Positions 895-45,828 of a stretch of DNA of 64,000 nt are shown one piece after another (the stretch's first letter is position 1; the number at the start of each line of letters is the position of its first letter). Under the pieces are notes generated by a model. It searched no databases. It was not told where the DNA came from and saw only the letters and a list, made by a program, of their open reading frames with translations. The translations under genes were made by a program, and so were the position numbers. The DNA comes from Corallococcus sp. (lineage in GTDB: Bacteria > Bacillota > Clostridia > Christensenellales > CAG-314). The DNA lies in assembly GCA_023667435.1 (NCBI GenBank), contig JAMPAB010000002.1:41180-105179 (forward strand), written 5' to 3'.

Positions 895-3800
895 TTGAGC
901 CAAAGCGACAGCGACAACAAATACGTGCGCGTTACGCTTGCAGATGACTGGACGGCTTCGCAGACGAATCTCGAAGGATGGACTTCGTTCGGAAGCGGAG
1001 AGGGCTTTTCGTCGGGAAGAATATTCGTACCGTACGACGCGAATATCGTGCTGGACTTAAACGGAAAAATCGTCAACCGTGATTTAAGCGAGTATTACGG
1101 AAAGAACCCCAACGGCAGCGTATTGTACGTAGAAGGCAACCTGATTGTCGAGGACGGCGCGCCTGCTGTCACACATACGATTGCCGGTTATCGTTACGAT
1201 TGGGACGAGGGGTACACCGTCTTCGATTCCGAAACCGTTAACGGCGGAGTTATTACCGGAGGCAAAGCAGCAACCGGCGGAGGAATAAACGTGGCCGATT
1301 ACGGTACGCTTACGCTGTGCGGAGGCAACGTATTCGGCAACTGCAGCACGGGCAACGGCGGAGGAATAGCGCTCGGCGATTACTGTTCGTTCGTAATGGA
1401 CGGCGGTAAAATTTGGTACAACAGCGCAGAACAGGGAGACAGAAACAACGGCGGAGGAATAAGCGCCGAATACTGCCGCATTATTATCAACGGCGGAACA
1501 ATTTCAAATAACTACGCCGATTCACGCGGCGGAGGAATTTATTCGTCCGCAAACGGTTCCAGCGAGGGATTCGATGAGACCGGCGCTGCCGCGTTCGCGA
1601 TTTACGGAGGCGAAATATCCGAGAACATATCCTCTGCCGAAGGAAGCGGTATTTACTACTCCCAAAACACCTGCATGATCGTCGGCGGATCCCTAGAATA
1701 TAATACGAGCCAGCGCAATTGGGCGGTGTACGGTTCGGGCGATTTGTACGTAGGCGGCAATGCCCGCATTGACAATAATAACTCTGATGAAGGGTATGGG
1801 GAAGAGTATATTTACGATTCCAACATAGGCTTGGCAACGGGCTGCTGCTTGCGCGTTACGGGCAGTTTTGAAGAAGGCGCGTTTTTTGCCGTATCCGACC
1901 CGACAATAGAGATTGTCAATTACGACAACTACGGCTATTCGTACGGTTCGGAAGAAACCGACGAGAACGGCAATCCGGTTGCGCAGCGCAATATCGACGA
2001 AGACGGACATCCCATCGATCCGACAACGTTTTTCGAGTACGACGAATACGACGGAATAAAATATAATATAACCCGCGTACAAAACGGCGCAGGCACGAGT
2101 TTGCCTCAGGCCTATTCGGGAACGCTGCGCGCTACAACCTACAACGTCATATGGTATCTATATCAGACGAACGAGGAAGGAACAGACGTGTCGAAAGTTA
2201 CTTACGGCAATCAATGTTACGAATCGGACAAAAACGCAACGGTAATACGTTATCCCGTTACAGAATACGGTACTTGGGAAAACAGATACAGAACGGGTAT
2301 TATGGCGAAAGTACTCGACGAAAACGACAACATAATAAACACGCTGGAGGCGGAAGTATACTATCCTTATCAAGGCACTCCCCGCAATTACGCGCCGTTT
2401 ACCACCTCCCACAACGACACATTGGAAACGGATCACCCGTACTCCGTAAGAATAAAGGTAAACGAAGAATACCTGTGGGTATCTCTCGATATTTACGCGA
2501 CGTCGATAGCGGACGCTGAGGTAACGGCGGAGATTCACGAAGATGCGAGATACTATCGGCTGGACGAAAATCTAAATGGGCGAATAAGCCTTACTGAAAA
2601 TGATTTCGATATAACGGTAACATTGAAGGACGGAACGGAGCTTACAAAAGGCGAGCATTATACCGTCAGTCTACCCAATCCGGATCCGAACGTCTACGAA
2701 AAGTTTTACGTTGAAATAAAGGGCATAAATACTTATAGCGGCACAAAGTCGTCAAACCTATTGTCTCTCGAAACAAACGAAAATCTCGAGTGTTATTTTG
2801 ACTACTGGCAAATTATAACTTACAATACCGATACAGAAAACATAGAGCGTACAAATTCCGAAACCAATCCGCATGTGATTGATTACGACTTCTACTATGC
2901 CGAAGAACAGCTGCTGGGAAGAAACTTTGCAAAAGACTTGAACGCTCACTGTTACTACAAAGTTGCCAATGCCGACGCTGACGACAATAGAAAATATGCC
3001 GCCAACGTATATTTTAATGCCGCTTCGGAAAACGGGGTCGCATTCGATATTTACAAGAAAGTCGAAGGAAAATGGACGCTTCTCGACGGCAACGAAATAA
3101 TAGGCATCGGCGAATATAAAATAGAACTTAGCACAAACAAGGTTTCTACCCCAAATGCGATGATTAGAGAAACTACTTTCAAACCGTTTTATCTAACCGT
3201 TAACCCGCTTGAGATAGATTCAGTATTATCCGTCGTCGATGGCGACAAAGGAGGATCAGGCGCGAAACTTAACGACGCGCTGAAGATATACTACAACGGC
3301 GACAACCTCGCCGACGTGTTGAAAAAGGATGACGCTTACATCAGTAACGGAGTAACGACGGTGTTGACGGAAGACGGCGATACCGTATACGTTTACTACA
3401 ACGGCAACAAAATGAACGTCAAAATAAGCGACAGCTTGGAGATCCAAAGACTTCCGTATAGGGAAGACGGCGAATGGCAGTACAAATGGTTACTTGTCAA
3501 AGATATCGGCAAAGCGTATATTACTCACAGCATAGGAGACGAAACGGGTATTGCCGGCGAGTCGGAAACCCTAACGCTAATCACCACAACGGTCAGAATA
3601 GAATTTGAGAACTTTATATTTGAGGTGCAACGCGAAGTCGAAGTAGAAAATGACGGCGAAGTTACAGTCGAAACCGTAACCGAATACGTAAACTACTTAG
3701 AAACGACGTTTAACTGGGCGATAGTAACTGCCTGCAACAACGTTCTCGGCGAGGACGATAAAGCGTATACGCCCGTAAAAAACGGCGGAGAAACGCCTAA

Positions 3801-6800
3801 AATAGAATACGGCGACGCGATCGACGTACCCAAAGCGCGCTACGGCGACGGAGTGATACTGCGCATTACAAAAGCCGACAACATTGACGAAAAATTCGTA
3901 GCGGTAGACGTATACGGTGCGACAGCGCTGTACGGTTACAGCGAAACGGCCGAAGGCAACTTGGGCGACAAAATCGGCAAAACGTTCGACGAATACGTTG
4001 CGGAGATTATCCGTAAAGGCGGCACGGGAAATTACAAACTTTACGCGCAGACGGCGGACTACACCGACAACGCAACGGGAATTAAGTATGTTTCCGCCGT
4101 ACAGGAATACGCTTTTACCGTTACCGCGCGCAATATCGGAAAGGAAGGAGAGGACATCAGAATAACCGTAACAGGCGAATACTCTTATACGGGCAGCCAA
4201 ATAACACCCGACGTTTACGTCTTAATAGACGGCATACCGTGCAAAGCAGGAGTCGACTACACCGTTTCTTACGGCGAAAACCTACTTGCGGGAACGAAAA
4301 CCGGCAGCATCACCGTAAATGGCACAGGCGTATATGAGGGAGAAAAGACGGTAGAGTTCGATATAGCGAAAGCCGCCAACAAGTGGACGATACTGAGTAT
4401 GTCCGTGTGGAATCACAATGCGTATAACGCGGACGAACACATTATAATATCCTACGCGCCCGTCGGACGCGACAGCGCGACGTACAAAATAGAAAAGTTC
4501 GAAGACAAACAGTGGAAATCGGTTGCAGGGCTGGAAGCTTTCAAAATAGACGCGAAAGGCAAGATCATAGACGATCAAGAAGGCGCAATCACCGACGCGC
4601 TTAACGGACTTCGCGACAAAAACAGACTTATCGCAACGATTGCAGAAAGCGACAACTACTACGGAGACACGACGGACTTCGAATTCGACATAGAAGCGCT
4701 GCAATCCTCTTACGCCGCGCCGCAGCTTATGCACTTGACGACGGGCGCAGGCAAGAACGACGTTTATACGGGACATATCCTGTCGATAGGTATTCAAAAC
4801 TACAATCCTACGGGAATGAAAGCGGAATTGGACGACGGACTTACGCTCGAAGGCAACGTACTGTACGCAACCGACGCGGGAACGTACACGGTAACGATTA
4901 CGCTGACGGGCGAGGACAGCGTTTGGAGCGACGGTTACGAAGGAGTAAGCCGAACGTTCACGTGGACTGTAAACAAACAAAAGGTTACCATACCCGCTTA
5001 CGGAGTTCGTTTACTTACGTACAACGGACAGGCGCAAACATATTTACCCGCAGGATTTGACTCGGCGACGATGGAAATATCCGAAAATACGGGAACGAAT
5101 GCGGACACGTACACCGCTGTTATAAAGTTGAAAGATACCGACAACTACGAGTGGGCAAATAACGCACAGGGAGAAATTCCGTACGAATTCGAAATAAAAC
5201 AAGCAAACAACGAGTGGACTGCGCTGAGCATCACGGAATGGTACAGCAAACACTACGACGCGGCAGTCAACAGAATAGCAGCATCTGCGGCGTTCGGTTA
5301 CGCGCAGGCGACGTACAAAATAGAAACGTACGTCGGCGGAAGATGGACGGCGGTTGAAGACCTGAACGGATTCAAAATCGACGCGAACGGCAAAATCATA
5401 GACGACAAAAACGGCAAAATTACCGACGCTCTGAACAAACTTCGCGGACAGTACAGACTTACCGCAGCTATTGCGGAAAGCGACAACTTTACGGAAGCGA
5501 CCGATAGTTTCGAGTTTGAAATCGAAGTGCTGTTGACAACCTACGCAACGCCCCGTCTGCTGCTTTTGACGACGGGCGCAGGCAAAAACAACGCTTACAC
5601 GGGGCACGAACTGTCTATCGGCATACAGAACTTGAACCTTGAAGGAATGGATATCGAACTGAGCGCAAAGAACGGATTTTCGCGCGTAGGCGGTACGCTG
5701 TACGCAACCGAAGCGGGAACGTACACGGTAACAATCGAGCTGTCGAACGAGGACAGCGTTTGGAGCAACGGTACGTCAAACGCGATAACGTTGGAGTGGG
5801 TAATAAGAAAACAAACGGTTGCCGCGCCCGCTTACGGAGAAACGGTACTTACGTACACAGGAAGCGAGCAAACTTACTTGCCCGAAGGGTTCGACGATTC
5901 CGTTATGGAAATATCCGAAAATACGGGAACGAACGTAGCTCGGTACACGGCAACGATAAGTCTTAAAGACCCCGACAACTACGAATGGAGTTCCAACCCC
6001 GACGCTGCTGCGCGTTCGTACGTATTCGACATAACGAAAGCCATGAACCGCTACACCACTCTGAGCATAGCGACGTGGTATTACCGCGATTACAATCCCG
6101 ACGTCAACAGAATAGTTTTCGACGCGGCGTTCGGTCTTGTACAGGCAACGTACAAAATAGAAAAGTACGTTGACGAAACCTGGACGGACGTTGAAGGTTT
6201 GGAAGACTTTAAGCTTGATGCGGACGGCAACGTTATAGACGAGGGCGGCAAGATTGCCGAAATATTGAACGGACTTCGCGGCAAATACAGACTTACCGCC
6301 GTAATAGAAGGAAACGACAATTACAGCGAAATAACCGCAACTTCTTACGAATTCAGTATCGTAATTCTGCCTACGAAGTACGACACGCCCGAACTTATGT
6401 ATCTGACGGCGGGCATAGGCAAAAACGACGTTTACACGGGACACGTTCTGTCGATAAGTATTCAGAACTTTAACATTGCCGGAATGGATATCGACCTGAG
6501 CGAGGGACTGACGATCGAAGGAAACGTGCTATACGCGACGAACGCGGGCACCTATACCGCTACGATTACTCTGTTGAGCGACGACAGCGAATGGGGCGAC
6601 GGACTGGGCGGAAACAGCAGAACGTTTACCTGGACGATCGGCAAAATAAAAGTTGCCGTGCCCGATTACGGAACGACGAAGCTTTCGTACAACGGAAGCG
6701 AACAGACGTACCTGCCGAAAGGGTTTGACGCGGCGACAATGGAAATATCCGACAATACGGGAACGGACGCCGACACGTACACGGCGAAAGTAAGACTTAA

Positions 6801-7092
6801 AGACCCCGTCAATTACGAGTGGGATAACCCCGACTACGGCGTGGAAATCCCCTATCAATTCGAAATAGAAAGCGCGACAAGGTTGTTTATAACGATCGTG
6901 TGCATACTTGCCGCCGCTGCGGCGGTTGCCGCGTTTGCCGCGCTTGCGCAATGGCTGATGCACAGACAACGCTTGAAAGTATTCGCAATGGCGAACGAAA
7001 CGGATAGCGACGAGAACGACGGCGAAGACGTTGACGGTGAAGAAGAAAACGAAAACGACGTTGAAGAACACGACGAAGGAGGTAACGAGTAA
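895..7092 (+). CDS. giant surface adhesin-like protein body (2,065 aa as tracked; frame open from 739)
   Basis: The N-terminal third has repeated GGGI/GGG-type turns (ATGGGINV, NGGGIALGD, NNGGGISAEY, SRGGGIYS, GSGIYYS), typical of PMP-like right-handed beta-helices. Three ~277-aa tandem repeats follow. A C-terminal TM helix (LFITIVCILAAAAAVAAFAALAQWL) is followed by a poly-acidic tail. The tracked start is a TTG without an SD. Confidence 0.9.
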   Translation: MSQSDSDNKYVRVTLADDWTASQTNLEGWTSFGSGEGFSSGRIFVPYDANIVLDLNGKIVNRDLSEYYGKNPNGSVLYVEGNLIVEDGAPAVTHTIAGYRYDWDEGYTVFDSETVNGGVITGGKAATGGGINVADYGTLTLCGGNVFGNCSTGNGGGIALGDYCSFVMDGGKIWYNSAEQGDRNNGGGISAEYCRIIINGGTISNNYADSRGGGIYSSANGSSEGFDETGAAAFAIYGGEISENISSAEGSGIYYSQNTCMIVGGSLEYNTSQRNWAVYGSGDLYVGGNARIDNNNSDEGYGEEYIYDSNIGLATGCCLRVTGSFEEGAFFAVSDPTIEIVNYDNYGYSYGSEETDENGNPVAQRNIDEDGHPIDPTTFFEYDEYDGIKYNITRVQNGAGTSLPQAYSGTLRATTYNVIWYLYQTNEEGTDVSKVTYGNQCYESDKNATVIRYPVTEYGTWENRYRTGIMAKVLDENDNIINTLEAEVYYPYQGTPRNYAPFTTSHNDTLETDHPYSVRIKVNEEYLWVSLDIYATSIADAEVTAEIHEDARYYRLDENLNGRISLTENDFDITVTLKDGTELTKGEHYTVSLPNPDPNVYEKFYVEIKGINTYSGTKSSNLLSLETNENLECYFDYWQIITYNTDTENIERTNSETNPHVIDYDFYYAEEQLLGRNFAKDLNAHCYYKVANADADDNRKYAANVYFNAASENGVAFDIYKKVEGKWTLLDGNEIIGIGEYKIELSTNKVSTPNAMIRETTFKPFYLTVNPLEIDSVLSVVDGDKGGSGAKLNDALKIYYNGDNLADVLKKDDAYISNGVTTVLTEDGDTVYVYYNGNKMNVKISDSLEIQRLPYREDGEWQYKWLLVKDIGKAYITHSIGDETGIAGESETLTLITTTVRIEFENFIFEVQREVEVENDGEVTVETVTEYVNYLETTFNWAIVTACNNVLGEDDKAYTPVKNGGETPKIEYGDAIDVPKARYGDGVILRITKADNIDEKFVAVDVYGATALYGYSETAEGNLGDKIGKTFDEYVAEIIRKGGTGNYKLYAQTADYTDNATGIKYVSAVQEYAFTVTARNIGKEGEDIRITVTGEYSYTGSQITPDVYVLIDGIPCKAGVDYTVSYGENLLAGTKTGSITVNGTGVYEGEKTVEFDIAKAANKWTILSMSVWNHNAYNADEHIIISYAPVGRDSATYKIEKFEDKQWKSVAGLEAFKIDAKGKIIDDQEGAITDALNGLRDKNRLIATIAESDNYYGDTTDFEFDIEALQSSYAAPQLMHLTTGAGKNDVYTGHILSIGIQNYNPTGMKAELDDGLTLEGNVLYATDAGTYTVTITLTGEDSVWSDGYEGVSRTFTWTVNKQKVTIPAYGVRLLTYNGQAQTYLPAGFDSATMEISENTGTNADTYTAVIKLKDTDNYEWANNAQGEIPYEFEIKQANNEWTALSITEWYSKHYDAAVNRIAASAAFGYAQATYKIETYVGGRWTAVEDLNGFKIDANGKIIDDKNGKITDALNKLRGQYRLTAAIAESDNFTEATDSFEFEIEVLLTTYATPRLLLLTTGAGKNNAYTGHELSIGIQNLNLEGMDIELSAKNGFSRVGGTLYATEAGTYTVTIELSNEDSVWSNGTSNAITLEWVIRKQTVAAPAYGETVLTYTGSEQTYLPEGFDDSVMEISENTGTNVARYTATISLKDPDNYEWSSNPDAAARSYVFDITKAMNRYTTLSIATWYYRDYNPDVNRIVFDAAFGLVQATYKIEKYVDETWTDVEGLEDFKLDADGNVIDEGGKIAEILNGLRGKYRLTAVIEGNDNYSEITATSYEFSIVILPTKYDTPELMYLTAGIGKNDVYTGHVLSISIQNFNIAGMDIDLSEGLTIEGNVLYATNAGTYTATITLLSDDSEWGDGLGGNSRTFTWTIGKIKVAVPDYGTTKLSYNGSEQTYLPKGFDAATMEISDNTGTDADTYTAKVRLKDPVNYEWDNPDYGVEIPYQFEIESATRLFITIVCILAAAAAVAAFAALAQWLMHRQRLKVFAMANETDSDENDGEDVDGEEENENDVEEHDEGGNE
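4375..6870 (+). repeat. three in-frame tandem repeats of ~0.83 kb inside the adhesin gene
   Basis: Units start at about 4375 (ANKWTILS), 5203 (ANNEWTALS) and 6040 (AMNRYTTLS). Periods are 828 and 837 nt. The protein units are clearly homologous (…ATYKIE.…W..V.GLE.FK.DA.GKIIDD… GAGKN.VYTGH.LSIGIQN… TYLP.GFD..TMEISENTGT…). Confidence 0.85.
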
Positions 7093-8380: not shown

Positions 8381-8419
8381 AGTCTCTCCCGCTGCATAGT
8401 AGCGGGAGAGACTTTTTTA
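8381..8419. terminator. bidirectional rho-independent terminator between convergent units
   Basis: AGTCTCTCCCGC (8381-8392) pairs with GCGGGAGAGACT (8402-8413). It is preceded by A6 and followed by T6, and sits between the + gene ending at 8292 and aroK ending at 8590. Confidence 0.8.
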
Positions 8420-23253: not shown

Positions 23254-23377
23254 ACGTACGCAAACGGCTTGACGTATTCTTTCGGCAAAGAACAGTCGAT
23301 ACGTTTGCAATCGCGCGGTAAATGCACTAAATCCGATTCCGCCGATTAAAATATAAAGAAAATATTTTGGAGGTTTT

Positions 23378-26634: not shown

Positions 26635-27900
26635 TTATTCGTCGCTACCCGACAGGTCATCCGGAGCGCGCTCTACAAGACAGTTGTTTTCCGACTTGTA
26701 AACTCTGTTATTCTCGTCAACGGTCAACGTTTCCAAAAGAGGACATTCGCGGAAGATGTTCTGTCCTATAGACGTCACAGTTGCAGATATGCTTACGCTT
26801 TTTAAAGAATCGCACCTGTTAAACACGTAGCTTCCCAAAGCAGTAACGCCTGCGGGAATTTCGAGACTTTGCAAATTGACGCACGATGCAAACGCCATAT
26901 TATTTATTACGCGGAGATTATTGCCCAAAAATACGACTTTTTCCAACCTGTCGCAGTTGGCAAATCCGTCCGCAGCTATTTCCAATACGGGTCTGCCCTG
27001 ATACGTCGCGGGGATATAGACAACAGCGGGACATTGCAACGACAATGCTCTTACCGACCATCCGCCCTTTATTTCGGAGAAACGAAGATATTCTCCTATT
27101 TTTGCGGGAGTTAAGCGCGTTTCGATATGCGCGCTGTCGTGCATACAAGTACGCGTTTCTTCGCCTTCCACAGCTTCGGTTGCTATTTTGCTCGTCACCC
27201 ATTCGCCGTATTCGTGTCCGATAGGATCTATTCTTTTTCTTTGAATATGCTCGGAATCGTTTCCGCATACCGACAACGCAATACCGCTTTGAGTGCATGT
27301 CGGCGTTTCGATTACGGCGAACTCGCTCCAGTTATGTCCCAAAGCGTCGATTTCGCGCGACTCCGTATGTCCGTTATCGTTACGGCAATAACGCGTTTCA
27401 ACGCCTTTGTCTACGCAAGTAGGGGAAAGCGTTACCGTCCATTCGCCGAAATCGTGTTCCGTTGCGACAATGCTTTGCAGTTGAACGTGAGCTGCGTCGT
27501 TGAGACATACCCTCATTTGCGACCCGTCCGACAGACAAGTCGGAGCGTTTACCGTCGTCCACTCTCCGTAACTGTGACCGATAGCTTTGACGGCGCGTTT
27601 ATCCGAATTGCCGCACTTAGAGCAATAACGCTGTTCTACGCCGTCGACGACGCACGTCGGTTCCGTTACGATCTCCCATTCGCCCCAGCTATGTCCCGTC
27701 GCCGCCGTTTCGCGCGTTTGACGGATTTCGGAATTTGCAAGCGACGTACGCGCAAGCAACCCCGATTCTTCGCACGTGGGCGCAGTCACTACTTCCCATT
27801 CGGTAAACTGTTCGTCATGATCGCAGCCCGCAATCAACAATACGGCGAAACAAATAAATGCAACGGCGCACAATATCAATAGTTTATCTCGAATTTTCAT
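26635..27900 (-). CDS. lipoprotein with six Cys/His-rich ~40-aa repeats and a C-terminal BspA-type leucine-rich-repeat domain
   Basis: I trimmed the start to ATG 27900 (MKIRDKLLILCAVAFICFAVLLIAGC has a lipobox). Six units match H.[WY]GEW..V..PTC...G.....C. The LRR_5-like region includes FANCDRLEKVVF..., FASCVNLQSLEIP, FNRCDSLKSVSI and FRECPLLETLTV. Confidence 0.8.
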   Translation of the reverse strand: MKIRDKLLILCAVAFICFAVLLIAGCDHDEQFTEWEVVTAPTCEESGLLARTSLANSEIRQTRETAATGHSWGEWEIVTEPTCVVDGVEQRYCSKCGNSDKRAVKAIGHSYGEWTTVNAPTCLSDGSQMRVCLNDAAHVQLQSIVATEHDFGEWTVTLSPTCVDKGVETRYCRNDNGHTESREIDALGHNWSEFAVIETPTCTQSGIALSVCGNDSEHIQRKRIDPIGHEYGEWVTSKIATEAVEGEETRTCMHDSAHIETRLTPAKIGEYLRFSEIKGGWSVRALSLQCPAVVYIPATYQGRPVLEIAADGFANCDRLEKVVFLGNNLRVINNMAFASCVNLQSLEIPAGVTALGSYVFNRCDSLKSVSISATVTSIGQNIFRECPLLETLTVDENNRVYKSENNCLVERAPDDLSGSDE

Positions 27901-27963
27901 ATCGAACCGTAACTCCTTTTTACAAGTATATCTCGGATTACCGCGTTTGTCAATATTTTTCGC

Positions 27964-36856: not shown

Positions 36857-37375
36857 CTACATTTTCTGCGGTTCGGGGTAAACTTCTCCGAACGTTTCGA
36901 CGCGGACGGACTTGATTTGCTGTTTTTCAAACGGACGGTCCGAATAATCCGTATATTCGTCGGCTATTTCGTCCACTACTTCCATACCGTTTGTAACCTT
37001 TCCGAAAGCGGCGTACGCGCCGTCGAGATGAGGCGCGTCCCGATGCATAATGAAAAACTGACTGCCGGCGCTGTCGGGATTCATCGCGCGCGCCATAGAG
37101 ATAACGCCGCGTTCGTGCTTGAGATCGTTTTTTACGCCGTTTTGCGAAAACTCTCCCTTTATCGTATATCCTGGACCGCCTGTGCCCAAACCTTTGGGAC
37201 AACCGCCCTGAATCATAAACCCCTTTATTACCCTATGAAAAATAAGTCCGTCATAGAAGCCCTTATTAGCCAGACTTATAAAATTATTTACCGTGTTCGG
37301 CGCAATTTTAGGATAAAGCTCTATTACTATTTGCTTGCCGTTGTTCATCGTTAACGTTGCCAGAGGATTTTGCAT
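36857..37375 (-). CDS. ppiB: cyclophilin-type peptidyl-prolyl cis-trans isomerase
   Basis: [15 protein letters not shown]...[13 protein letters not shown] and [17 protein letters not shown] are present. Confidence 0.93.
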
Positions 37376-37622
37376 AATACGCTCCTTAATCCGAATATTC
37401 GCGCCGATTTACGCACATCTGCCGACGGGAGATACGGCGACTGCGTTCGACGCAACTACTAAATTATAATAAATAAACCCGTCAATGTCAATACGCATCG
37501 GTAAAAAATACACGACGGCGTAGCCGATGACAAACTGCCGACAAATTTCAAACATTGTCAACCGTCTAAAGCAATGCCTACGTTTACGAAATTTATAAAA
37601 AAGAAAATTAAATTATAAAACG

Positions 37623-37654
37623 ATCGGATTTGGCGCGATGTCAAATCCGATTTT
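37623..37654. terminator. orphan terminator-like hairpin at the left edge of the low-GC island
   Basis: ATCGGATTTG (37623-37632) pairs with CAAATCCGAT (37642-37651), with A-rich sequence upstream and TTT downstream. No gene ends nearby on either strand. Confidence 0.4.
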
Positions 37655-37759
37655 AATTGTTGTCCTTTGCAACAAGAGTTGCCGCCGCAATAGCAGGGGA
37701 TTCTGTTTTGTTTGATATATTTACGCGGTACATGTATTTTTCCAACATTACAAATAATG

Positions 37760-37788
37760 TTGAAAATTTTTCCTTGTTATGCTATAAT
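37760..37788 (+). promoter_or_regulatory. extended -10 promoter of the giant LRR lipoprotein gene
   Basis: TTGAAA (37760-37765), 17-nt spacer ending in TGC, then TATAAT (37783-37788). Confidence 0.6.
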
Positions 37789-37795
37789 TGGCTTA

Positions 37796-37894
37796 CCACA
37801 TCGACAATTGAATACACATAAAACGACGAATATATCTCCGGTAGATATATGCGCTTTTCTCAAATTGTCGTTTTATGTCAATTGTACGGTGTGG
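37796..37894 (+). promoter_or_regulatory. 99-nt compound hairpin in the 5' leader
   Basis: Pairings: CCACA with TGTGG, ACAATTGA (37804-37811) with TCAATTGT (37878-37885), and ACATAAAACGAC (37816-37827) with GTCGTTTTATGT (37867-37878). An apical hairpin pairs ATATATCT with AGATATAT (37830-37850). Confidence 0.6.
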
Positions 37895-37921
37895 TAACCT
37901 AATGAGGCGTATATACTGCAA

Positions 37922-37954
37922 GTGTCGTTCTCATTTAGGGGACGGCACTTTTTT
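37922..37954 (+). terminator. intrinsic terminator inside the leader, 8 nt upstream of the SD (attenuator candidate)
   Basis: GUGUCGUUC (37922-37930) pairs with GGACGGCAC (37940-37948), 9 bp including two G-U pairs, with a 9-nt loop. It is followed by T6 (37949-37954), then GGAGG (37962-37966) and ATG 37973. Confidence 0.6.
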
Positions 37955-37972
37955 AATACTCGGAGGCAAACT

Positions 37973-40900
37973 ATGAGGAAAAAACTAAGTATAGCGTTGT
38001 TATTATTTGTGACGTTAATAGCCTCGCTTACGTTAGTTGGCTGTAAGCATAAGCATAACTATACCGTACAGTCGGTAACCGAACCCACCTGTACGGAGCG
38101 CGGTTACACAACATACGTATGCGACGGCTGTGACGACACTTACAAAGATAACTACGTCGAAATAAAACCGCACACGCCTCAAACAGCCACAAACGAAAAC
38201 GTTGTAACGGCGGACTGTACTCACGCAGGCGGTTACGACGAAGTGATTCGCTGTAAGGATTGCAATGTTATAATGTCTACTACTCATCATAACGTTGAAA
38301 CGACTTTGCATACGCTCAAGGGACCTACGCGAGAGAGCGTAGTTGAGCCCACTTGTTCTACGTTCGGCAGTTATGATGAAGTCATATATTGTAGCGACTG
38401 CAACGCAATACTTTCGTCTACGCCTAAAACAATAGATAAACTTCCGCACACGCCCGAAGAAAATTGGATAATAGACCGTAATGCTACTTGTACCGTCAAG
38501 GGTTCAAAGCATTTAGAATGTTCCGTTTGTCATACAACGTTACAAACGGAAAGCATACCAACAACCGAACATAAATACGGAGCATGGACTATTAACTCCG
38601 ATGCCCACCGGCGCACATGTTCAACATGCAAAAGCGTTGAAAGTGGCAACCATAATATGGCAAATGAACATTGTACAGTCTGTAACTATTATGAAAAAGA
38701 CTATTCTCAATTGTTTGACTTTGTGCTTGTAGACGGAGAATACGTTGTAACGCGTTACAAGGGTACTGATACTATCGTGACTGTTCCGTCTCGCTACAAT
38801 GGCAAAGATATTACAACTATCAAGGCAAACGCATTTAGCGCTTGCGGATACTATATTACAGATTTAATAATTGAAAAAGGCATAACTACTATCGAGGAAG
38901 GCGCTTTAATCGGGTGCTCCGCATTACGTACGCTGTCATTGCCTCAGTTAAACTGTCATTTTGCCAAACTTTTTGATATGTCTTCTACTACGCTTTCTGT
39001 TGCACAAAGCGATATATATCCAAGCGCAGTTGATTCTTATACGATAAAAGTTAATGGGGTAAACCGCATTTTTGGTATACCGAGAGACGGTTGTTCGTGG
39101 TATTACAACGGTACATTATCCGACGGTAGAATTTATTGCAACGACGAATTGACCGTTTTGTCAAGCAAACAAACATACGAAACTACCGTCGGCGTATATT
39201 GGACGCTGCCTACGTCTGTAAGAATAAAGTATTATCAATTGCCAACTTACTTCAAAAAACTAACTATAACCGATGAGGCAATTTCGTTAAACAACAGTAA
39301 ACTGTCGGGCTGCTCGGACTACGAAATAGAAATACAACGGGTTGAAATTAAAACCATTACAATAGCAGACGTAGTATCTTACATTGATGAATTTGATGTA
39401 AACAATTATTCGTTTACGGTCAAATATACGAACGATACTTCTAATACCGTAAATGACGTATTTAACTATATTGAGAATGACAACAAGGCGTTATTGTCAA
39501 CCGTTGGAGAACACGAATTGTCGCTATGTTTTGAAGGTGTAACATTTAAATGGAATCTCACTCTTAATAATCATACGTTTAGTAATAATGTACAACTAAC
39601 ATCTCAATCTTATTACTACGACGGCGACAGTAAGTCATTGGCGGTTGAAAACTTGCCTGATGGCGCAAACGTGCAGTATATCAACAACGGACAAACGGAA
39701 ATTGGTGTTTATGATATTACTGCTACAATAACAAAGCCGTACTACGATGATTTGCAATTGCAAGCGACTCTAACGATAAAACAAGACGTTTACAGCATTA
39801 CTTACAACAATCTTAACGGAGTTGAAAACAACAACCCCGACACGTTCAATGCGTCTAAAGGACTTGTATTGAACAATTTGGAAAAATTAAATTATGTATT
39901 TGTAGGTTGGTACAAAGACAGTCAATTCAAAACAAAAATAGAAAGTATTCCTCTTGAAACTGAAGAAAATATAACTCTTTATGCGCAATGGAAAAGCATA
40001 TTCCAGTTAAGCGGAAACTCTATTGTCGGTATTACCGATTATGGCAAGACGTATACCGAAATTATAATCGATCCTATTATTGAAGGAGTTAATATAAGAC
40101 AAATTGGCGAATCTGCTTTTGCAAATTGCAAGGCAATGACAAAAATTACAATTCCCGACACTATAACGACAATAGGCGCTTCGGCTTTTGCAAATTGCAA
40201 TAAATTAATAAAAATTGATTTTAAGGGAGAAATAGCAGACTGGTGCAATATAAGTTTTGGTAATAGCAGTGCTAATCCCCTGTACTATGCACATAATTTG
40301 TACGTAAATGGCGAACTTGTAACGGAGTTAGAAATACCCGACGGTGTAACCGAAATAAAGAATTGCGCATTTTGCGGTTGTACAAGCATAACAAGTGTAA
40401 CAATACCAGATAGCGTACAGTCAATAGGCTATTACGCGTTCGATAATTGCGGCAACCTAATAGCGGTTTACTATACTGGAGTAATAGCAGATTGGTGTAA
40501 TATTAGTTTTGGCGGTTACGGTGCAAATCCGTTGTACTATGCTCACAACTTGTACATAAATAACGAAATAATATCCGGAGATATAGTAATGCCCAACGGC
40601 GTTACTACCATACCGAGTTACACTTTCAAAAACAGTGCAATTACAAGCATAACAATACCAAACAGCGTTACATCAATAGACGGTTATGCGTTTGACTCTT
40701 GTAATAATTTAACTGCTGTATACTACGCAGGAACAGTAGGAGATTGGTGCAAAATTAATATTAACAGCAATCCGATGTCCTATGCTCAAAACTTATATAT
40801 AAATAACGAAATAATATCTGGTGATATAGTACTCCCTGATGGTGTTACTACTATACCGATGTACACTTTCAAAAATAGTACTATAACGAGTATAACGATA

Positions 40901-42949
40901 CCTAATAGTGTCAAAACGATAGGTGGTTTTGCATTTCAAAATTGTAACTGTCTAACTGGCATTACGGTTCCTAACAGTGTGACGTCAATAGGCAGTTCCG
41001 CTTTTAGCGGTTGTAGCAGTTTGGAAAGCATAACGTTGCCGTTTGTGGGCGGATCAAGAAAAACTGCGAGCGCTGCCTATCAATATCCGTTTGGATATAT
41101 ATTTGGAACAAGCAGTTATACTGGCGGAGTGGAAACTGAGCAACGATATTACGGTCCCATTATAAACGGAAATGTATATACTGAAATTACTAATTACTAT
41201 ATTCCATTGACGCTAAAATCCGTAACGATAACGGGCGGTAATATACTTTACGGCGCGTTCTATGGTTGTAGTGGACTAACAAGCACTACGGTATCTGACA
41301 GTGTTACATTGATAGCAGGTTTCGCATTCTATGATTGCAATAACCTAACAAGCATAACAATGGGTAAAAGCGTAACGTCGATAGTTGGCAATGCGTTCGT
41401 TGGTTGTGATAGTCTAGCAACGGTATACTATACTGGCTCAATAGCCGACTGGTGCAATATAAGTTTTGGAAATAATTATGCTAATCCATTGTACTATGCT
41501 CACAACTTGTATATAAATAACGAACTTGTAACGAAGTTGGATATACCCGACGGCGTAACCGAAATAAAGGATTACGCATTTTCTGGTTGTGCAAGTATAA
41601 CAAGCGTAACAATCCCTGACAGCATTAAATGGATAGGTAAGAATGCCTTTTACAAGTGTACTAGTTTAATATGTGCATCAATCAGAAACGGTTTAAAGAC
41701 AATAGGGGAAAATGTATTTAGTTGCAGTGGTCTTACGAGCATTATAATTCCTGACAGCGTAACATCAATAGGTGAGGCCGCGTTCTCTAGTTGCAATAGT
41801 CTGGCTAGTGTAATTATTGGCAACGGTGTTAGGACAATAGATGATGTTGCGTTTGCTAGCTGCCGTAGTCTGATAAACGTAACGATAGGCAACAGCGTTA
41901 CTTCGATAGGTGTTGATGCATTCTATTATTGCATTAGGTTAGTTGAAGTGTACAATTTGTCGCGTCTAACTATTGTTGCCGGTTCAATTGATAACGGATA
42001 TGTGGCAAGTTATGCCAAGATAGTCCATACTTCTGCAAACGAAGCAAGTAAACTAACCACGACAGCCGACAATTATTTATTCTACGCTGATGACAAAAAT
42101 GTCTATCTTATAGGCTACATTGGCAATGAAACGGAGTTGATTTTGCCAAATAATTTCAATGACCGTCCTTACGCAATAAATAAATATGCGTTTGCCAAGA
42201 ACGATAGTTTAACAAGTATAACAATTCCAGATAGCGTCACGTCGATAGGCAGTTACGCATTCGAAGGTTGCAGTAACTTAACAAACATCATAATTCCCGA
42301 CAGCGTAATATCACTACAATCTGCATTTGGTGGTTGTAGTAGTTTACAATATAATGAGTATGATAATGCACTGTATCTAGGCAATACTAACAACCCGTAC
42401 TTAGTACTGTTCAAGGCAAAAAATACAGATATAACTACTTGCGAAATAAACGAGAATACAAAGATTATATACAGCTCAGCGTTCTATAATTGCAGTAAAC
42501 TTACAAGCATTACAATTCCTAATAGTGTTACGTCAATAAACGATGGTGCGTTTTCTTATTGTAGTAATCTAATTAGTATAAAATTCGGGAACAACGTGGT
42601 ATCAACGGGCTATCAAACATTTGCTTATTGCAGAAGTTTAACAAGCATAGCATTAGGCAACAACGTAAATGTGATAGGTAATTATGCGTTTTGTGGTTGC
42701 AGCAACCTAACAAGCATAATAATTCCCGAAAGTGTAACGTCAGTAATTGCTGGCGCATTCTATGACTGCAGTAGTCTAAAATCAGTGTACTACAAGGGGA
42801 ATGCGAACACTTGGGCGAAAATTAGTTTAAGCAGTAGTGACAATGCCAATTTGATTGCGGCTGCGAAATACTATTATAGCGAAACACAACCAACAACCAG
42901 CGGCAGATATTGGCACTATGACGACAATGGGGATATCGTTGTTTGGTAA
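37973..42949 (+). CDS. giant (1,658-aa) BspA-type leucine-rich-repeat lipoprotein with N-terminal Cys-rich repeats
   Basis: I trimmed the start to ATG 37973 (MRKKLSIALLLFVTLIASLTLVGC has a lipobox). There are 4-5 PTC...G......C..C units, then dozens of LRR_5-like units (ITIP.SVTSIG..AF..C..LTSI). Composition is markedly AT-richer than neighbouring genes. Confidence 0.88.
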   Translation: MRKKLSIALLLFVTLIASLTLVGCKHKHNYTVQSVTEPTCTERGYTTYVCDGCDDTYKDNYVEIKPHTPQTATNENVVTADCTHAGGYDEVIRCKDCNVIMSTTHHNVETTLHTLKGPTRESVVEPTCSTFGSYDEVIYCSDCNAILSSTPKTIDKLPHTPEENWIIDRNATCTVKGSKHLECSVCHTTLQTESIPTTEHKYGAWTINSDAHRRTCSTCKSVESGNHNMANEHCTVCNYYEKDYSQLFDFVLVDGEYVVTRYKGTDTIVTVPSRYNGKDITTIKANAFSACGYYITDLIIEKGITTIEEGALIGCSALRTLSLPQLNCHFAKLFDMSSTTLSVAQSDIYPSAVDSYTIKVNGVNRIFGIPRDGCSWYYNGTLSDGRIYCNDELTVLSSKQTYETTVGVYWTLPTSVRIKYYQLPTYFKKLTITDEAISLNNSKLSGCSDYEIEIQRVEIKTITIADVVSYIDEFDVNNYSFTVKYTNDTSNTVNDVFNYIENDNKALLSTVGEHELSLCFEGVTFKWNLTLNNHTFSNNVQLTSQSYYYDGDSKSLAVENLPDGANVQYINNGQTEIGVYDITATITKPYYDDLQLQATLTIKQDVYSITYNNLNGVENNNPDTFNASKGLVLNNLEKLNYVFVGWYKDSQFKTKIESIPLETEENITLYAQWKSIFQLSGNSIVGITDYGKTYTEIIIDPIIEGVNIRQIGESAFANCKAMTKITIPDTITTIGASAFANCNKLIKIDFKGEIADWCNISFGNSSANPLYYAHNLYVNGELVTELEIPDGVTEIKNCAFCGCTSITSVTIPDSVQSIGYYAFDNCGNLIAVYYTGVIADWCNISFGGYGANPLYYAHNLYINNEIISGDIVMPNGVTTIPSYTFKNSAITSITIPNSVTSIDGYAFDSCNNLTAVYYAGTVGDWCKININSNPMSYAQNLYINNEIISGDIVLPDGVTTIPMYTFKNSTITSITIPNSVKTIGGFAFQNCNCLTGITVPNSVTSIGSSAFSGCSSLESITLPFVGGSRKTASAAYQYPFGYIFGTSSYTGGVETEQRYYGPIINGNVYTEITNYYIPLTLKSVTITGGNILYGAFYGCSGLTSTTVSDSVTLIAGFAFYDCNNLTSITMGKSVTSIVGNAFVGCDSLATVYYTGSIADWCNISFGNNYANPLYYAHNLYINNELVTKLDIPDGVTEIKDYAFSGCASITSVTIPDSIKWIGKNAFYKCTSLICASIRNGLKTIGENVFSCSGLTSIIIPDSVTSIGEAAFSSCNSLASVIIGNGVRTIDDVAFASCRSLINVTIGNSVTSIGVDAFYYCIRLVEVYNLSRLTIVAGSIDNGYVASYAKIVHTSANEASKLTTTADNYLFYADDKNVYLIGYIGNETELILPNNFNDRPYAINKYAFAKNDSLTSITIPDSVTSIGSYAFEGCSNLTNIIIPDSVISLQSAFGGCSSLQYNEYDNALYLGNTNNPYLVLFKAKNTDITTCEINENTKIIYSSAFYNCSKLTSITIPNSVTSINDGAFSYCSNLISIKFGNNVVSTGYQTFAYCRSLTSIALGNNVNVIGNYAFCGCSNLTSIIIPESVTSVIAGAFYDCSSLKSVYYKGNANTWAKISLSSSDNANLIAAAKYYYSETQPTTSGRYWHYDDNGDIVVW

Positions 42950-42980
42950 GTATAACTAAATAAATGAAAGGAGTAAGTAT

Positions 42981-43352
42981 ATGGAAGAAAGAAGTAAGCT
43001 TAGTGACGCATTAAAAGAATTTGAGCAATCGGGAGTAAATTATCTTCCATCGCTTTATGGCGCTAGTGTTGCGAGAGGGACAAGTTTAGATATTCAATTT
43101 AAGAGCGACTCGATATATTTTAAGCGAAAGAATACTCAAATGAGCGTTAAAAGAGATAATCTTTGTAAATCTTTTGAGTTGTTGTTAAAAAGTAAACAAT
43201 TGCATATGGGTGAACGCCAATTTACTAATATTATAAGCGAAGGGTGCGTTCAAGCATTTTTCTTTCAATTGCTAAAGTATCTAGGCTTAGCAAAAATACA
43301 GGGAACGGGTGTACATGGAGATAAATTCGTCGCGGTGCCGTTGAATACTTAA
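42981..43352 (+). CDS. hypothetical protein (123 aa)
   Basis: AAAGGAG lies 8 nt upstream of the ATG, and the gene starts 31 nt after the LRR gene stop. No motif recognised. Low GC like the LRR gene. Confidence 0.6.
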   Translation: MEERSKLSDALKEFEQSGVNYLPSLYGASVARGTSLDIQFKSDSIYFKRKNTQMSVKRDNLCKSFELLLKSKQLHMGERQFTNIISEGCVQAFFFQLLKYLGLAKIQGTGVHGDKFVAVPLNT

Positions 43353-43436
43353 AGAACTATCGGTGCTACAACGACAACCACGAAATTCTCGTTTGGACAT
43401 ACAACAAAGAAAACAATTAACAAAAGGAGAAATATT

Positions 43437-43778
43437 ATGGAGTACAAAACGGAACAAGTATATGAGCAATATTTGGCTTACCTTTGGGGAGTAAAAAAAG
43501 TCTGTATCACAAATACGGAAATCACTGTTGTTTTGAGGGAAGATAATAACTTTGATTTGCAGGCAGAAGCATTTTTGCAAGCGTATGAAAATGCAAAAAA
43601 TGATGAAAAAGCGCAGGAAATTTTGAAACGTGGAATGGCTATTGTAATGAATATCCTTGATGATTTGACGCACGAAATAGCAGCGCATATTCCTAAGATT
43701 GCTGATGGAAAATTTACTTGGAAATATGACGATAAAACCGCAAAAAACCTCCTTGAGATAAAAAAGGCAGTTGGATAA
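43437..43778 (+). CDS. hypothetical protein (113 aa)
   Basis: AAAGGAG lies upstream and a terminator downstream. No motif recognised. Confidence 0.6.
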   Translation: MEYKTEQVYEQYLAYLWGVKKVCITNTEITVVLREDNNFDLQAEAFLQAYENAKNDEKAQEILKRGMAIVMNILDDLTHEIAAHIPKIADGKFTWKYDDKTAKNLLEIKKAVG

Positions 43779-43821
43779 TGGGGAAGCGACTGACGGCATA
43801 CATAAATTGGAATAAAGTTCC

Positions 43822-43860
43822 AAAAAAGCCGAGAGATTAATCGCAATCTCTCGGCTTTGC
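43822..43860. terminator. bidirectional terminator
   Basis: AGCCGAGAGATT (43827-43838) pairs with AATCTCTCGGCT (43845-43856). A6 lies upstream and TTTGCTGTTGTT downstream. Confidence 0.75.
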
Positions 43861-43894
43861 TGTTGTTAAGGCGTGTAGTTATTGTTGGCAACGG

Positions 43895-44092
43895 CTATCT
43901 ATACACCGCCAAATACTTTCTTTGAATTCTTTGCATACATTCATGCGTGGAACTAATCGCTCTGCATACTTCTCTTGCAATTTGCGGGTAACTCATTCCG
44001 TTCATACGGTATTGCAGAAAAAGGCACACTACCGCTGCGCAAGAGAACGTACGGCGAGTACGTATTGACGAAGTATACCGTTTGCATAACAC
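43895..44092 (-). CDS. small HTH protein resembling sigma-70 region 4 (possibly a gene remnant)
   Basis: LFLQYRMNGMSYPQIAREVCRAISSTHECMQRIQRK resembles the region-4 HTH of ECF/phage-type sigma factors. It is only 65 aa. An overlapping 77-aa ORF in another frame (43953..44186) hints at a frameshifted larger gene. Confidence 0.3.
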   Translation of the reverse strand: MLCKRYTSSIRTRRTFSCAAVVCLFLQYRMNGMSYPQIAREVCRAISSTHECMQRIQRKYLAVYR

Positions 44093-44192
44093 CGCAAAAA
44101 GCTTTATAGCTCGAAATCTTTCTGACTAACCGTCGCGCGCGGCATTGCGGATTAAAATTCAGAACGCGGCAAAACCGCAAAATCAATTTTTG

Positions 44193-44221
44193 TTGACTTT
44201 ATTTTTGCGTTTTTGTATAAT
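44193..44221 (+). promoter_or_regulatory. strong extended -10 promoter 375 nt upstream of the aminopeptidase ATG
   Basis: TTGACT (44193-44198), 17-nt spacer ending in TG, then TATAAT (44216-44221). Confidence 0.6.
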
Positions 44222-44312
44222 ATAATCAAAAATAATCAACCGAAATACCCATCGAATGTGAGATGTTCGTACTTCGAATCGATAATTTATCATTCGATGA
44301 TATAATATAACA

Positions 44313-44520
44313 GACACGAACTATATCTTACGCAGTATTAAAGTTATCAACGTGATACGATGTAATAAACAGCGGTTAAATGCCGTTAGACGCAGTCTGT
44401 TGTTTTATTATATCGTACACGAACAATACTAACTCTAATATTTAGCAATCAACGTAATACGATGTAATAGCGAGCAGTTAGCAGTAGTTAATTGTAGTTA
44501 AACATCGTTAACTATTTAAT
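44313..44520 (+). repeat. two tandem ~100-nt hairpin-forming repeat units in the leader
   Basis: Both units begin ACACGAAC... and share the core ATCAACGT(G/A)ATACGATGTAATA (44346-44367 and 44448-44469). In unit A, ACGATGTAATAAACAG pairs with CTGTTGTTTTATTATATCGT. In unit B, ACGATGT pairs with ACATCGT. Confidence 0.7.
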
Positions 44521-44595
44521 ATAGTCCATTATAAAAACATAAAATCACCGCGCGCAATAAACGTATTTTGCCGCGCAAAATCCGGAGGAAAAATT

Positions 44596-45828
44596 ATGCT
44601 TACAAACAAACAGATGGAAAAATACGCAGAGCTTGCCGTACGTGTAGGCGCCAATATGCAGAAAGGACAGGAAGTCGTAATCCACTGCGACGTACAATGC
44701 GCTCAATTTGCTCACTTAATTGCGGAAAAAGCTTACGAATTCGGCGCAAAAACGGTACATATGGAATGGCGCGACGAAAAGCTCAAACGCATCAATATGT
44801 TAAACGCCGACAAAGAAGCGCTGTGCGACATTCCGTCGTATCAGACGGAATTGTGGAATTACTTTATCGAACGCAAATGCTGTCTTATTTCCATATCGGC
44901 AGACGATCCTAATATGTACAAAGGCTGCGATCCCGACAAATTATCCGCATACGAAGTAGCTTTTCAAACGGCAAGACGTCTGTTCCGCAACGCCACCATG
45001 TCCAACTATCTCCGTTGGACCATTGTATCCATTCCCACTCCCGCTTGGGCGCAGCAAATCTTCCCGAACGACTCCGTAGACGTCGCTATGGACAATCTGT
45101 GGAACGCGATAGGTCATATTATGCGTTTGGATCAACCCGACCCCACCGCAGCGTGGCGCAAAGATATAGATACTCTCGTCAAACGAGCCGAATATCTTAC
45201 CGAATGTAACTTCGAGTACATTCATATGACCAACAAAGAAGGCACCGACCTGAAAGTAGGACTTGCCGAAGGACACGTATGGGTTGCCGCAGAAGAAGAA
45301 GGACAGGACGGCATTTCCTTTACCGCCAACATGCCGACGGAAGAAGTTTTTACCGCGCCGCACAACCGTAAAATCAACGGCAAGGTTGTCAACGCTCTGC
45401 CGCTTGTCAACAACGGCAATATAATAGACGACTTCTCGATTACTTTTAAGGACGGAAAGGTTGTCGATTACAGCGCGAAAGTAGGTTACGAAGCGCTTAA
45501 AGGGTTGCTTTCCAGCGACGAGGGAGTGCTTTCGTTGGGCGAAATTGCTCTCATAGGCAAAAACTCGCCCATTGCTGAAAGCGGAATACTGTTTTACAAC
45601 ACGCTGTTCGACGAAAACGCAAGCTGCCACCTTGCATTCGGCGCAAGCTATCCCACTACCGTAAAAGGCGGCGTGGATATGACGACGGAACAGCTTTCCG
45701 CGCGCGGAATGAATCAAAGCATCCAACACGTCGACTTTATGGTAGGCACAAAAGATATAGACATAGACGGCATAGGTTACGACGGTACCGTTACGCCTAT
45801 ATTCCGCAACGGCGAATGGGTAATTTGA
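44596..45828 (+). CDS. pepS: M29-family aminopeptidase (PepS/AmpS type)
   Basis: 410 aa. MLTNKQMEKYAELAVRVGANMQKGQEV.I, the C-terminal HLAFGASYP and IQHVDFMVG are typical of aminopeptidase T/S. Confidence 0.88.
   Translation: MLTNKQMEKYAELAVRVGANMQKGQEVVIHCDVQCAQFAHLIAEKAYEFGAKTVHMEWRDEKLKRINMLNADKEALCDIPSYQTELWNYFIERKCCLISISADDPNMYKGCDPDKLSAYEVAFQTARRLFRNATMSNYLRWTIVSIPTPAWAQQIFPNDSVDVAMDNLWNAIGHIMRLDQPDPTAAWRKDIDTLVKRAEYLTECNFEYIHMTNKEGTDLKVGLAEGHVWVAAEEEGQDGISFTANMPTEEVFTAPHNRKINGKVVNALPLVNNGNIIDDFSITFKDGKVVDYSAKVGYEALKGLLSSDEGVLSLGEIALIGKNSPIAESGILFYNTLFDENASCHLAFGASYPTTVKGGVDMTTEQLSARGMNQSIQHVDFMVGTKDIDIDGIGYDGTVTPIFRNGEWVI

Follow-up and report, generated by a model that had tools for sequence, protein, structure and literature searches.

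A predicted terminator between promoter and ribosome-binding site suggests possible attenuation of a giant LRR lipoprotein gene

Introduction

Few surface proteins of gut Clostridia are as large or as variable as the BspA-type LRR proteins, and to our knowledge almost nothing is known about the regulation of the latter. The locus described here raises the question of whether the leader of one such gene decides if transcription reaches the coding region, and which parts of the leader could do so. The gene lies in a window of 64 kb, by which we mean the whole stretch of DNA that was analysed, and all positions are given in the numbering of this window. An earlier note on this DNA had read the leader as a candidate attenuator or riboregulator in which a large hairpin and an intrinsic terminator precede the start codon. 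Here we report the folds, promoter and domain scans, family searches and homologue comparison that bear on this proposal.

Results

Gene product and source genome

The LRR lipoprotein gene (37973..42949, + strand) encodes a product of 1658 aa. A domain search of the product identified a lipoprotein-type signal peptide ending in LVGC, Cys-rich repeats, one Flg_new (Listeria-Bacteroides) repeat, and 10 matched stretches of the BspA-type LRR_5 profile. The NCBI protein MCM1533167.1 (1430 aa) represents this product with an internal start assigned to it, 228 codons 3' of the SD-preceded ATG at 37973 (gene-start region 37973–38656). The public annotation therefore lacks the lipoprotein signal peptide and the Cys-rich repeats, which are conserved in the homologue P0121 (see below). 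The source, a Clostridia-like gut bacterium that is uncultured, is a MAG labelled 'Corallococcus sp.' (proteins MCM1533166/7) for which there is no close sequenced relative. The label is at odds with the content, as the region has ~42% G+C. The cyclophilin-type PPIase encoded in the window is 78–85% identical to proteins of Christensenellaceae, other Clostridia MAGs, and unlabelled metagenome contigs.

The gene for this PPIase (36857–37375, − strand) is the upstream neighbour of the LRR gene and divergent from it, with its own perfect-consensus promoter at 37491–37463, so the 600-nt intergenic region is a divergent promoter region. This region also contains a perfect 10-bp hairpin (ATCGGATTTG/CAAATCCGAT, 37622–37652) that is T-rich on both sides and has no gene there for it to terminate. 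This hairpin may act as an insulator between the divergent promoters or be left over from the island boundary.

An accessory surface-protein island

In the closest relatives the PPIase gene is directly divergent from a peptidase-M29 gene, with 162–192 nt between them (PPIase identity of 85% for L085 and L089 and 83% for L086–L088). Since the M29 gene is adjacent to the PPIase gene in these relatives but is found at 44596–45828 here, ~7 kb (~37492–44190) has been inserted. The insert holds the leader, the LRR gene, two small ORFs without a Pfam match, a bidirectional terminator (43828–43855), and a sigma/HTH-like remnant. The G+C content of the cassette is 0.36–0.40 compared to 0.43–0.49 in the flanks, and in a further relative (L090–L092, PPIase identity 84%) this site is occupied by a different LRR_5 gene whose leader is simple. 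The leader is thus part of an accessory, lineage-specific surface-protein island. A synteny walk through the PPIase relatives yielded no homologous leader because the closest relatives are without the whole cassette.

The remnant is a 65-aa ORF (43895–44092, − strand) that ends …MNGMSYPQIAREVCRAISSTHECMQRIQRKYLAVYR and resembles sigma-factor region 4 or an HTH domain. Judged from its sequence, it is probably a truncated regulator or a mobile-element remnant, and it would mark the right edge of the island; the bidirectional terminator comes after it. A promoter resembling that of M29 in the relatives (TTGACT-17-TATAAT, ~44194–44222) lies ~370 nt upstream of the M29 start, as opposed to ~35 nt in L085. 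In this region (44194–44595) the extra DNA holds two tandem ~100-nt units with direct repeats at 44298–44325/44401–44428 and 44346–44378/44448–44480 that are 75–85% identical.

Promoter and predicted transcript start

A sigma-A-type extended −10 promoter is present at 37760..37788 on the + strand, as the earlier note had described it, with TTGAAA at 37760–37765, TG at 37780–37781, TATAAT at 37783–37788, and a 17-nt spacer ending in TGC. In a promoter scan it scored 11/12 plus TG and was the best + strand promoter of the intergenic region. The transcript start is predicted from spacing at A37795, 7 nt after the −10 element. No other + strand candidate scoring at least 9/12 was found by the scan between this promoter and the ATG. 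A promoter downstream of or inside the terminator was considered and rejected: the sole candidate is a lone TATACT (37912–37917) with no −35 element, and a transcript starting from it would still include the terminator. The distance from the T-run of the terminator to the ATG is 18 nt, too short to house a promoter. Given this gap and the divergent upstream gene, the LRR gene would be transcribed only through the terminator, and the terminator would act only on the LRR gene's own transcript.

A predicted intrinsic terminator before the Shine-Dalgarno sequence

The predicted intrinsic terminator (37920..37954, + strand) has a 13-bp stem (37920–37932/37938–37950), an AUUUA loop, and a T6 run at 37949–37954. 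Direct reading bore out the stem (37922–37948) and T6 run of the earlier note and lengthened the stem: the core at 37922–37948 has 11 bp (−15.1 kcal/mol) and the full stem 13 bp (−17.6 kcal/mol; range −15 to −18). The pairs comprise six G-C, three G.U and four A-U. On the opposite strand the three U.G pairs would become A.C mismatches, and the terminator is therefore specific to + strand transcripts, with a G+C-rich stem-loop directly followed by a U-tract on the transcribed strand. Its strength matches that of gene-end terminators identified at 8413, 47809, 29490, and 26560 in a survey of the whole window. The translation initiation region (37959..37975, + strand, CUCGGAGG) comes right after it, as previously claimed; the SD GGAGG (37962–37966) and the AUG (37973–37975) were read directly, and the T-run ends 7 nt before the GGAGG. 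The terminator is therefore placed as in an attenuator, between the gene's only promoter candidate, with its predicted start, and the ribosome-binding site (RBS).

Three further surface-protein genes of the window start at 602, at 23378 and, on the − strand, at 27902; all have simple leaders, and none of these leaders contains a terminator. The last of the three (26635–27902, − strand) is divergent from glyQS and encodes a second lipoprotein in which Cys-rich repeats are combined with an LRR_5 domain. Its leader is short and plain (TTGACA-17-TATACT, GGAG, no terminator), which indicates that only the gene at 37973 has the structured type of leader. At 602, an ATG with GGAG 8 nt upstream opens a signal-peptide ORF (602–790, + strand) that stops after 61 codons, and a C8 homopolymer (750–757) precedes the stop. 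With C9 instead of C8 the frame would run for 2163 codons to 7092, joining a 2065-aa ORF (895–7092, + strand). The C8 tract points either to a phase-variation switch of the slipped-strand type, set to 'off' here, or to a sequencing error in the homopolymer.

Conservation of the terminator in a homologous gene

A search among 5.8 billion proteins identified P0121 (contig L081, from SRR33454272) as the only orthologue-like relative of the LRR protein, with 64% aa identity over the first 198 codons. Whole-protein and N-terminal searches for LRR orthologues yielded P0001, which is the same gene, and P0121 as the only matches. Exact-protein look-ups for the window's own proteins gave no match. Two metagenome scans revealed no LRR orthologue, and the leaders on the contigs L082 and L084 are short and unrelated.

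The sequence of contig L081 starts 45 nt before the ATG and reads GCCGTCTC-gtta-GAGGCGGC-a-TTTTTT-attacaa-GGAG-atgaact-ATG. Positions 1–27 hold a homologous hairpin and a T6 run, and the spacing from T-run to ATG is identical (18 nt). The contig starts inside the 5' arm of the terminator, and the comparison covers the terminator, SD and ATG rather than the antiterminator (described below) or the 5' hairpin. Stems were compared by hand over eight pairs, aligned from the T-run inwards. Three pairs are identical, four have a one-sided change that still pairs (G.U to G-C three times and A-U to G.U once), one has a double change (G-C to A-U), and none is broken.

Between L081 and the window, 25 of 34 positions (74%) are identical over the stretch that runs from the terminator 3' arm up to the ATG, compared to 44% of third codon positions in the adjoining coding region (49% at conserved residues). 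With all pairs kept, this difference argues that the terminator-RBS module is under purifying selection as a hairpin and U-tract, a conclusion drawn from one relative and from the 3' module. The covariation check that the earlier note had proposed for homologous leaders thus came out in favour of the terminator, with structure-preserving substitutions in one homologue across the 3' module.

A compound hairpin at the predicted 5' end

Folding of the whole leader (37795–37976) gave −64.2 kcal/mol (z = −7.3), and none of 200 dinucleotide shuffles folded as well. The first part forms a compound hairpin of 101 nt and 38 bp (37795..37895, + strand, −40.0 kcal/mol) that begins flush with the predicted +1. 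It comprises P1a (37795–37803/37887–37895, 9 bp) followed by bulge A37886, P1b (37804–37811/37878–37885, 8 bp) followed by a 5-nt bulge (37812–37816), P2 (37817–37829/37865–37877, 13 bp) followed by a 14-nt asymmetric internal loop (37851–37864), and P3 (37830–37837/37843–37850, 8 bp) with the apical loop CCGGU (37838–37842), all on the + strand. A large hairpin had been described here before; its presence stands, and its basal stem is corrected from 5 + 8 bp to 9 + 8 bp with a start at 37795. Among all 101-nt segments of both strands of the window (mean −21.2, sd 6.2), the hairpin is ~3 sd below the mean energy.

In the predicted fold the hairpin is an almost perfect helix and does not have the junction of an aptamer. 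With its start at the predicted +1 it looks more like a 5' stabiliser, and the simplest reading of the model is that it is also an autonomous folding domain. Gram-positive 5' stabilising stem-loops, such as those of the Bacillus subtilis aprE leader and of the ermC type, are stable hairpins at or near the 5' end. The hairpin here is likewise at the predicted 5' end, ahead of the structured leader of a surface-protein mRNA, and its stem falls within ~4 nt of that end if the start lies 7 nt after the −10 element, where spacing places it. In contrast to these stabilisers it is far longer, at 101 nt and 38 bp, its start is predicted, and it could be a substrate of RNase III. A role as RNase III substrate or as a protein docking site may also be considered for it.

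Hairpins at +2 were also found in the predicted 5' UTR folds of the 1013-aa gene at 23378 (23259–23308, + strand) and of the PPIase gene (37456–37399, − strand). These two leaders, whose z-scores are not individually significant, suggest that 5'-proximal hairpins are common in the genome.

The arms of the compound hairpin are nearly perfect (2 G.U among 38 pairs), which could mean that the palindrome is young and belongs to the DNA, instead of being an RNA structure under long selection. Its symmetry continues for 8 nt on the upstream side of the predicted +1, and CAATTG occurs in both arms. Together with its position in a ~7-kb island missing from the closest relatives, these features would fit a DNA-level element without RNA function that arrived with the island, such as a mobile-element relic, an operator pair (CAATTG), or an invertible segment. 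This origin is highly improbable in our estimation. The hairpin is single-copy in the window, loci and collections searched and has no target-site duplication, the promoter is outside the repeat, and the 39–65-nt spacer is too short for a typical inverton, so the arrangement departs from that of invertons, MITEs and REP elements. The + strand also folds better than its complement (−40.0 compared to −33.5 kcal/mol), and the conserved terminator would be left unexplained. An inverton built from the weak repeats I4 and I6 was tried and rejected, as these repeats are not collinear.

Two exclusive folds downstream of the hairpin

The earlier note had proposed a switch in which AACGAC could pair with either of two copies of GUCGUU. 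The hexamers are present where it placed them (AACGAC at 37822–37827; GTCGTT at 37867–37872 and 37924–37929), but the switch itself was rejected: the best structure pairing AACGAC with GUCGUU at 37924–37929 has −29.4 kcal/mol, compared to −60.9 kcal/mol for the terminator state. It costs 31 kcal/mol and needs melting of the −40 kcal/mol hairpin.

A better alternative in the folding model is a candidate antiterminator hairpin identified by prefix folding (37898..37939, + strand, −12.8 kcal/mol). In it the 5' strand, CCUAAUGAGGCG (37898–37909), is paired to the complete 5' arm of the terminator, to the terminator loop, and to the two bases with which the terminator 3' arm begins. In prefix folding the compound hairpin is complete at 37895 and the hairpin at 37898–37939 forms next. 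The antiterminator is the minimum-energy fold for transcripts ending at 37939–37945, and the terminator takes over at ~37946–37948. The two structures are mutually exclusive, and a pseudoknot combining them would span 9 bp with a 1-nt loop. The terminator state has −60.9 kcal/mol and the antiterminator state −53.5 kcal/mol, and in the equilibrium fold the pair probability of the terminator is 0.9997. An antiterminator of this level was reached by 2.6% of dinucleotide shuffles of the linker and by 4.1% of genomic 24-mers (p ~0.026–0.041). The excess over chance is marginal, comes from one sequence, and is suggestive of a real alternative fold. In the full-length fold, CCU..UGAG (37898–37906) pairs weakly with CUCG.AGG at the SD and adds ~−4 kcal/mol; similar pairing of the SD region might form in read-through RNA.

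These values leave room for a leader that senses nothing. A constitutively leaky terminator behind a 5' stabiliser would provide fixed low read-through for a costly 5-kb gene, and the antiterminator would be due to chance or to tuning of the leak. We regard this as unlikely, yet as an explanation of real weight. It is favoured by an antiterminator only marginally above chance, by the absence of an aptamer-like fold and of a Rfam match, and by the +2 hairpins of two other leaders in the window, which suggest a general habit of the genome; conservation of the terminator fits equally well. It is opposed by the wastefulness of joining a strong promoter to a strong terminator where a weaker promoter would suffice, and by the preference of the nascent RNA for an alternative fold that spans the whole 5' arm of the terminator.

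The strand that would form the antiterminator also overlaps a 17-codon uORF on the + strand, identified by direct reading, which runs from AUG 37849 to UAA 37900–37902, followed by an in-frame UGA, and encodes MRFSQIVVLCQLYGVVT. In leader-peptide attenuation, a ribosome at the uORF stop would mask the antiterminator strand and lead to termination, and an earlier stall would lead to antitermination. The stop falls within CCUAAUGAG (37898–37906), part of the antiterminator 5' strand, which is the geometry of a classical attenuator, and the peptide is rich in Val, Leu, and Ile. Set against this, a leader-peptide attenuator has an SD and an accessible start, and the uORF has neither: no credible SD precedes it, only GGUAG 7–8 nt upstream, and AUG 37849 is buried in P3 of the −40 kcal/mol hairpin. 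A second uORF (AUG 37875 to UGA 37976) spans the terminator, and in L081 a stop codon breaks its frame. Firmicutes do not as a rule couple translation tightly to transcription, which also counts against this mechanism, and we hold it to be very unlikely.

Searches for known families and further copies

We searched for known regulatory RNAs and for copies of the leader elsewhere. A scan of the whole window with Rfam 15 at the gathering score produced a single match, a tRNA. With E values up to 10, the region 37300–38100 matched only sub-threshold plant microRNA models and the Listeria antisense RNA rliD, which is due to the long helix. The Rfam 15 scans were negative for riboswitch, T-box, and protein-binding leader families, in agreement with the earlier statement that no riboswitch or T-box core could be recognised. 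Resemblance to RAT, PyrR, TRAP, or HutP sites was rejected by eye and from the Rfam result. There was no antiterminator-protein domain among nine neighbouring products in a domain scan.

BLAST found no copies of the leader in the window or in 80 PPIase-anchored genome loci, and there were no matches to the leader in plasmid and phage collections. The terminator and the conserved T-run/SD/ATG pattern had no matches in viral contigs. The 17-nt hairpin arm had four viral-contig matches without extended similarity, about the number expected by chance from a rough estimate for the size of the collection.

These results bear on whether the promoter, hairpin, and terminator instead form a stand-alone gene for a trans-acting small RNA of ~155–160 nt, with the LRR gene as a read-through product. 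The unit is complete as predicted, with a strong promoter, a stable 5' hairpin and a strong terminator, and the 14-nt open internal loop and apical CCGGU loop could be seed regions. However, none of the collections searched yielded another copy or a homologue of the hairpin, and the LRR gene has no separate promoter. L081 keeps the terminator-SD-ATG junction with fixed spacing, which ties the element to the downstream gene, and a small-RNA gene is accordingly improbable.

Discussion

We tentatively interpret the 178-nt leader as a cis-acting transcription attenuator of the accessory LRR-lipoprotein gene, with the antiterminator corrected as above, and place our confidence in this reading a little short of even. 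The transcript start, termination itself, the switching, and any effector are elements that we infer. Transcription would start at ~37795 from the strong extended −10 promoter. The first 101 nt would fold at once, flush with the 5' end and independently of the rest of the leader, and would most likely guard against 5'-end-dependent decay. The next 77 nt could adopt two exclusive structures, of which the antiterminator (37898–37939) would form first as the RNA emerges. The more stable terminator (37920–37954) would then displace it unless the antiterminator were held or the timing of the polymerase altered. Termination would yield a leader RNA of ~155–160 nt and read-through a 5-kb mRNA. The SD region shows weak complementarity to the antiterminator's 5' strand, so that the RBS might also be freed on antitermination.

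Of the attenuator or riboregulator envisaged by the earlier note, the terminator between promoter and RBS is retained and is conserved in L081, whereas the ligand-sensing part found no support. A protein or a kinetic factor seems a more likely effector than a small molecule bound by an aptamer.

Firmicute leaders that switch between terminator and antiterminator (riboswitches, T-boxes, LicT/SacY-RAT, PyrR, and TRAP systems) share with this one a strong promoter, a long leader, a terminator before the RBS, an upstream strand able to pair with the 5' arm of the terminator, and two exclusive folds. They differ in that there is no aptamer, T-box, RAT, or PyrR-binding consensus here (Rfam 15, E up to 10), that none of the nine neighbouring products scanned carries a PRD, PyrR, or TRAP-type domain, and that the regulated gene encodes a surface LRR lipoprotein and is not a metabolic operon. 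Term-seq has reportedly uncovered leader attenuators that respond to antibiotics or ribosomes (Dar et al. 2016, Science). The leader here resembles them in having a 5' UTR terminator and a short uORF whose stop overlaps the antiterminator strand, but this uORF is without an SD and buried in a stable helix, and the gene that follows does not confer resistance. The processive antiterminators of long operons, LoaP and other NusG paralogues, also target leaders. Those leaders and the present one have in common a hairpin followed by an intrinsic terminator ahead of an unusually long transcription unit. Here, none of the nine neighbouring products scanned has a NusG-like domain, and the leader does not resemble the described elements in sequence.

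The leader is therefore an unclassified instance of a well-known regulatory design, described from one genome and a partial homologue. A bolder proposal is that it is the founder of an orphan class of effector-responsive attenuators, in which the 5' hairpin with its 14-nt loop docks a protein or ligand and binding decides whether the antiterminator persists and so turns on the giant BspA-type LRR adhesins that uncultured gut Clostridia encode on variable islands. This is speculative, and we think it a long way from probable.

The conserved terminator ahead of the LRR gene implies that expression would be gated after initiation, and the 77-nt module is a concrete, mutable object for testing. 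If there is no effector, the locus would be one more leaky-terminator leader. If there is one, it would link an environmental or host cue to the display of an adhesin-like protein.
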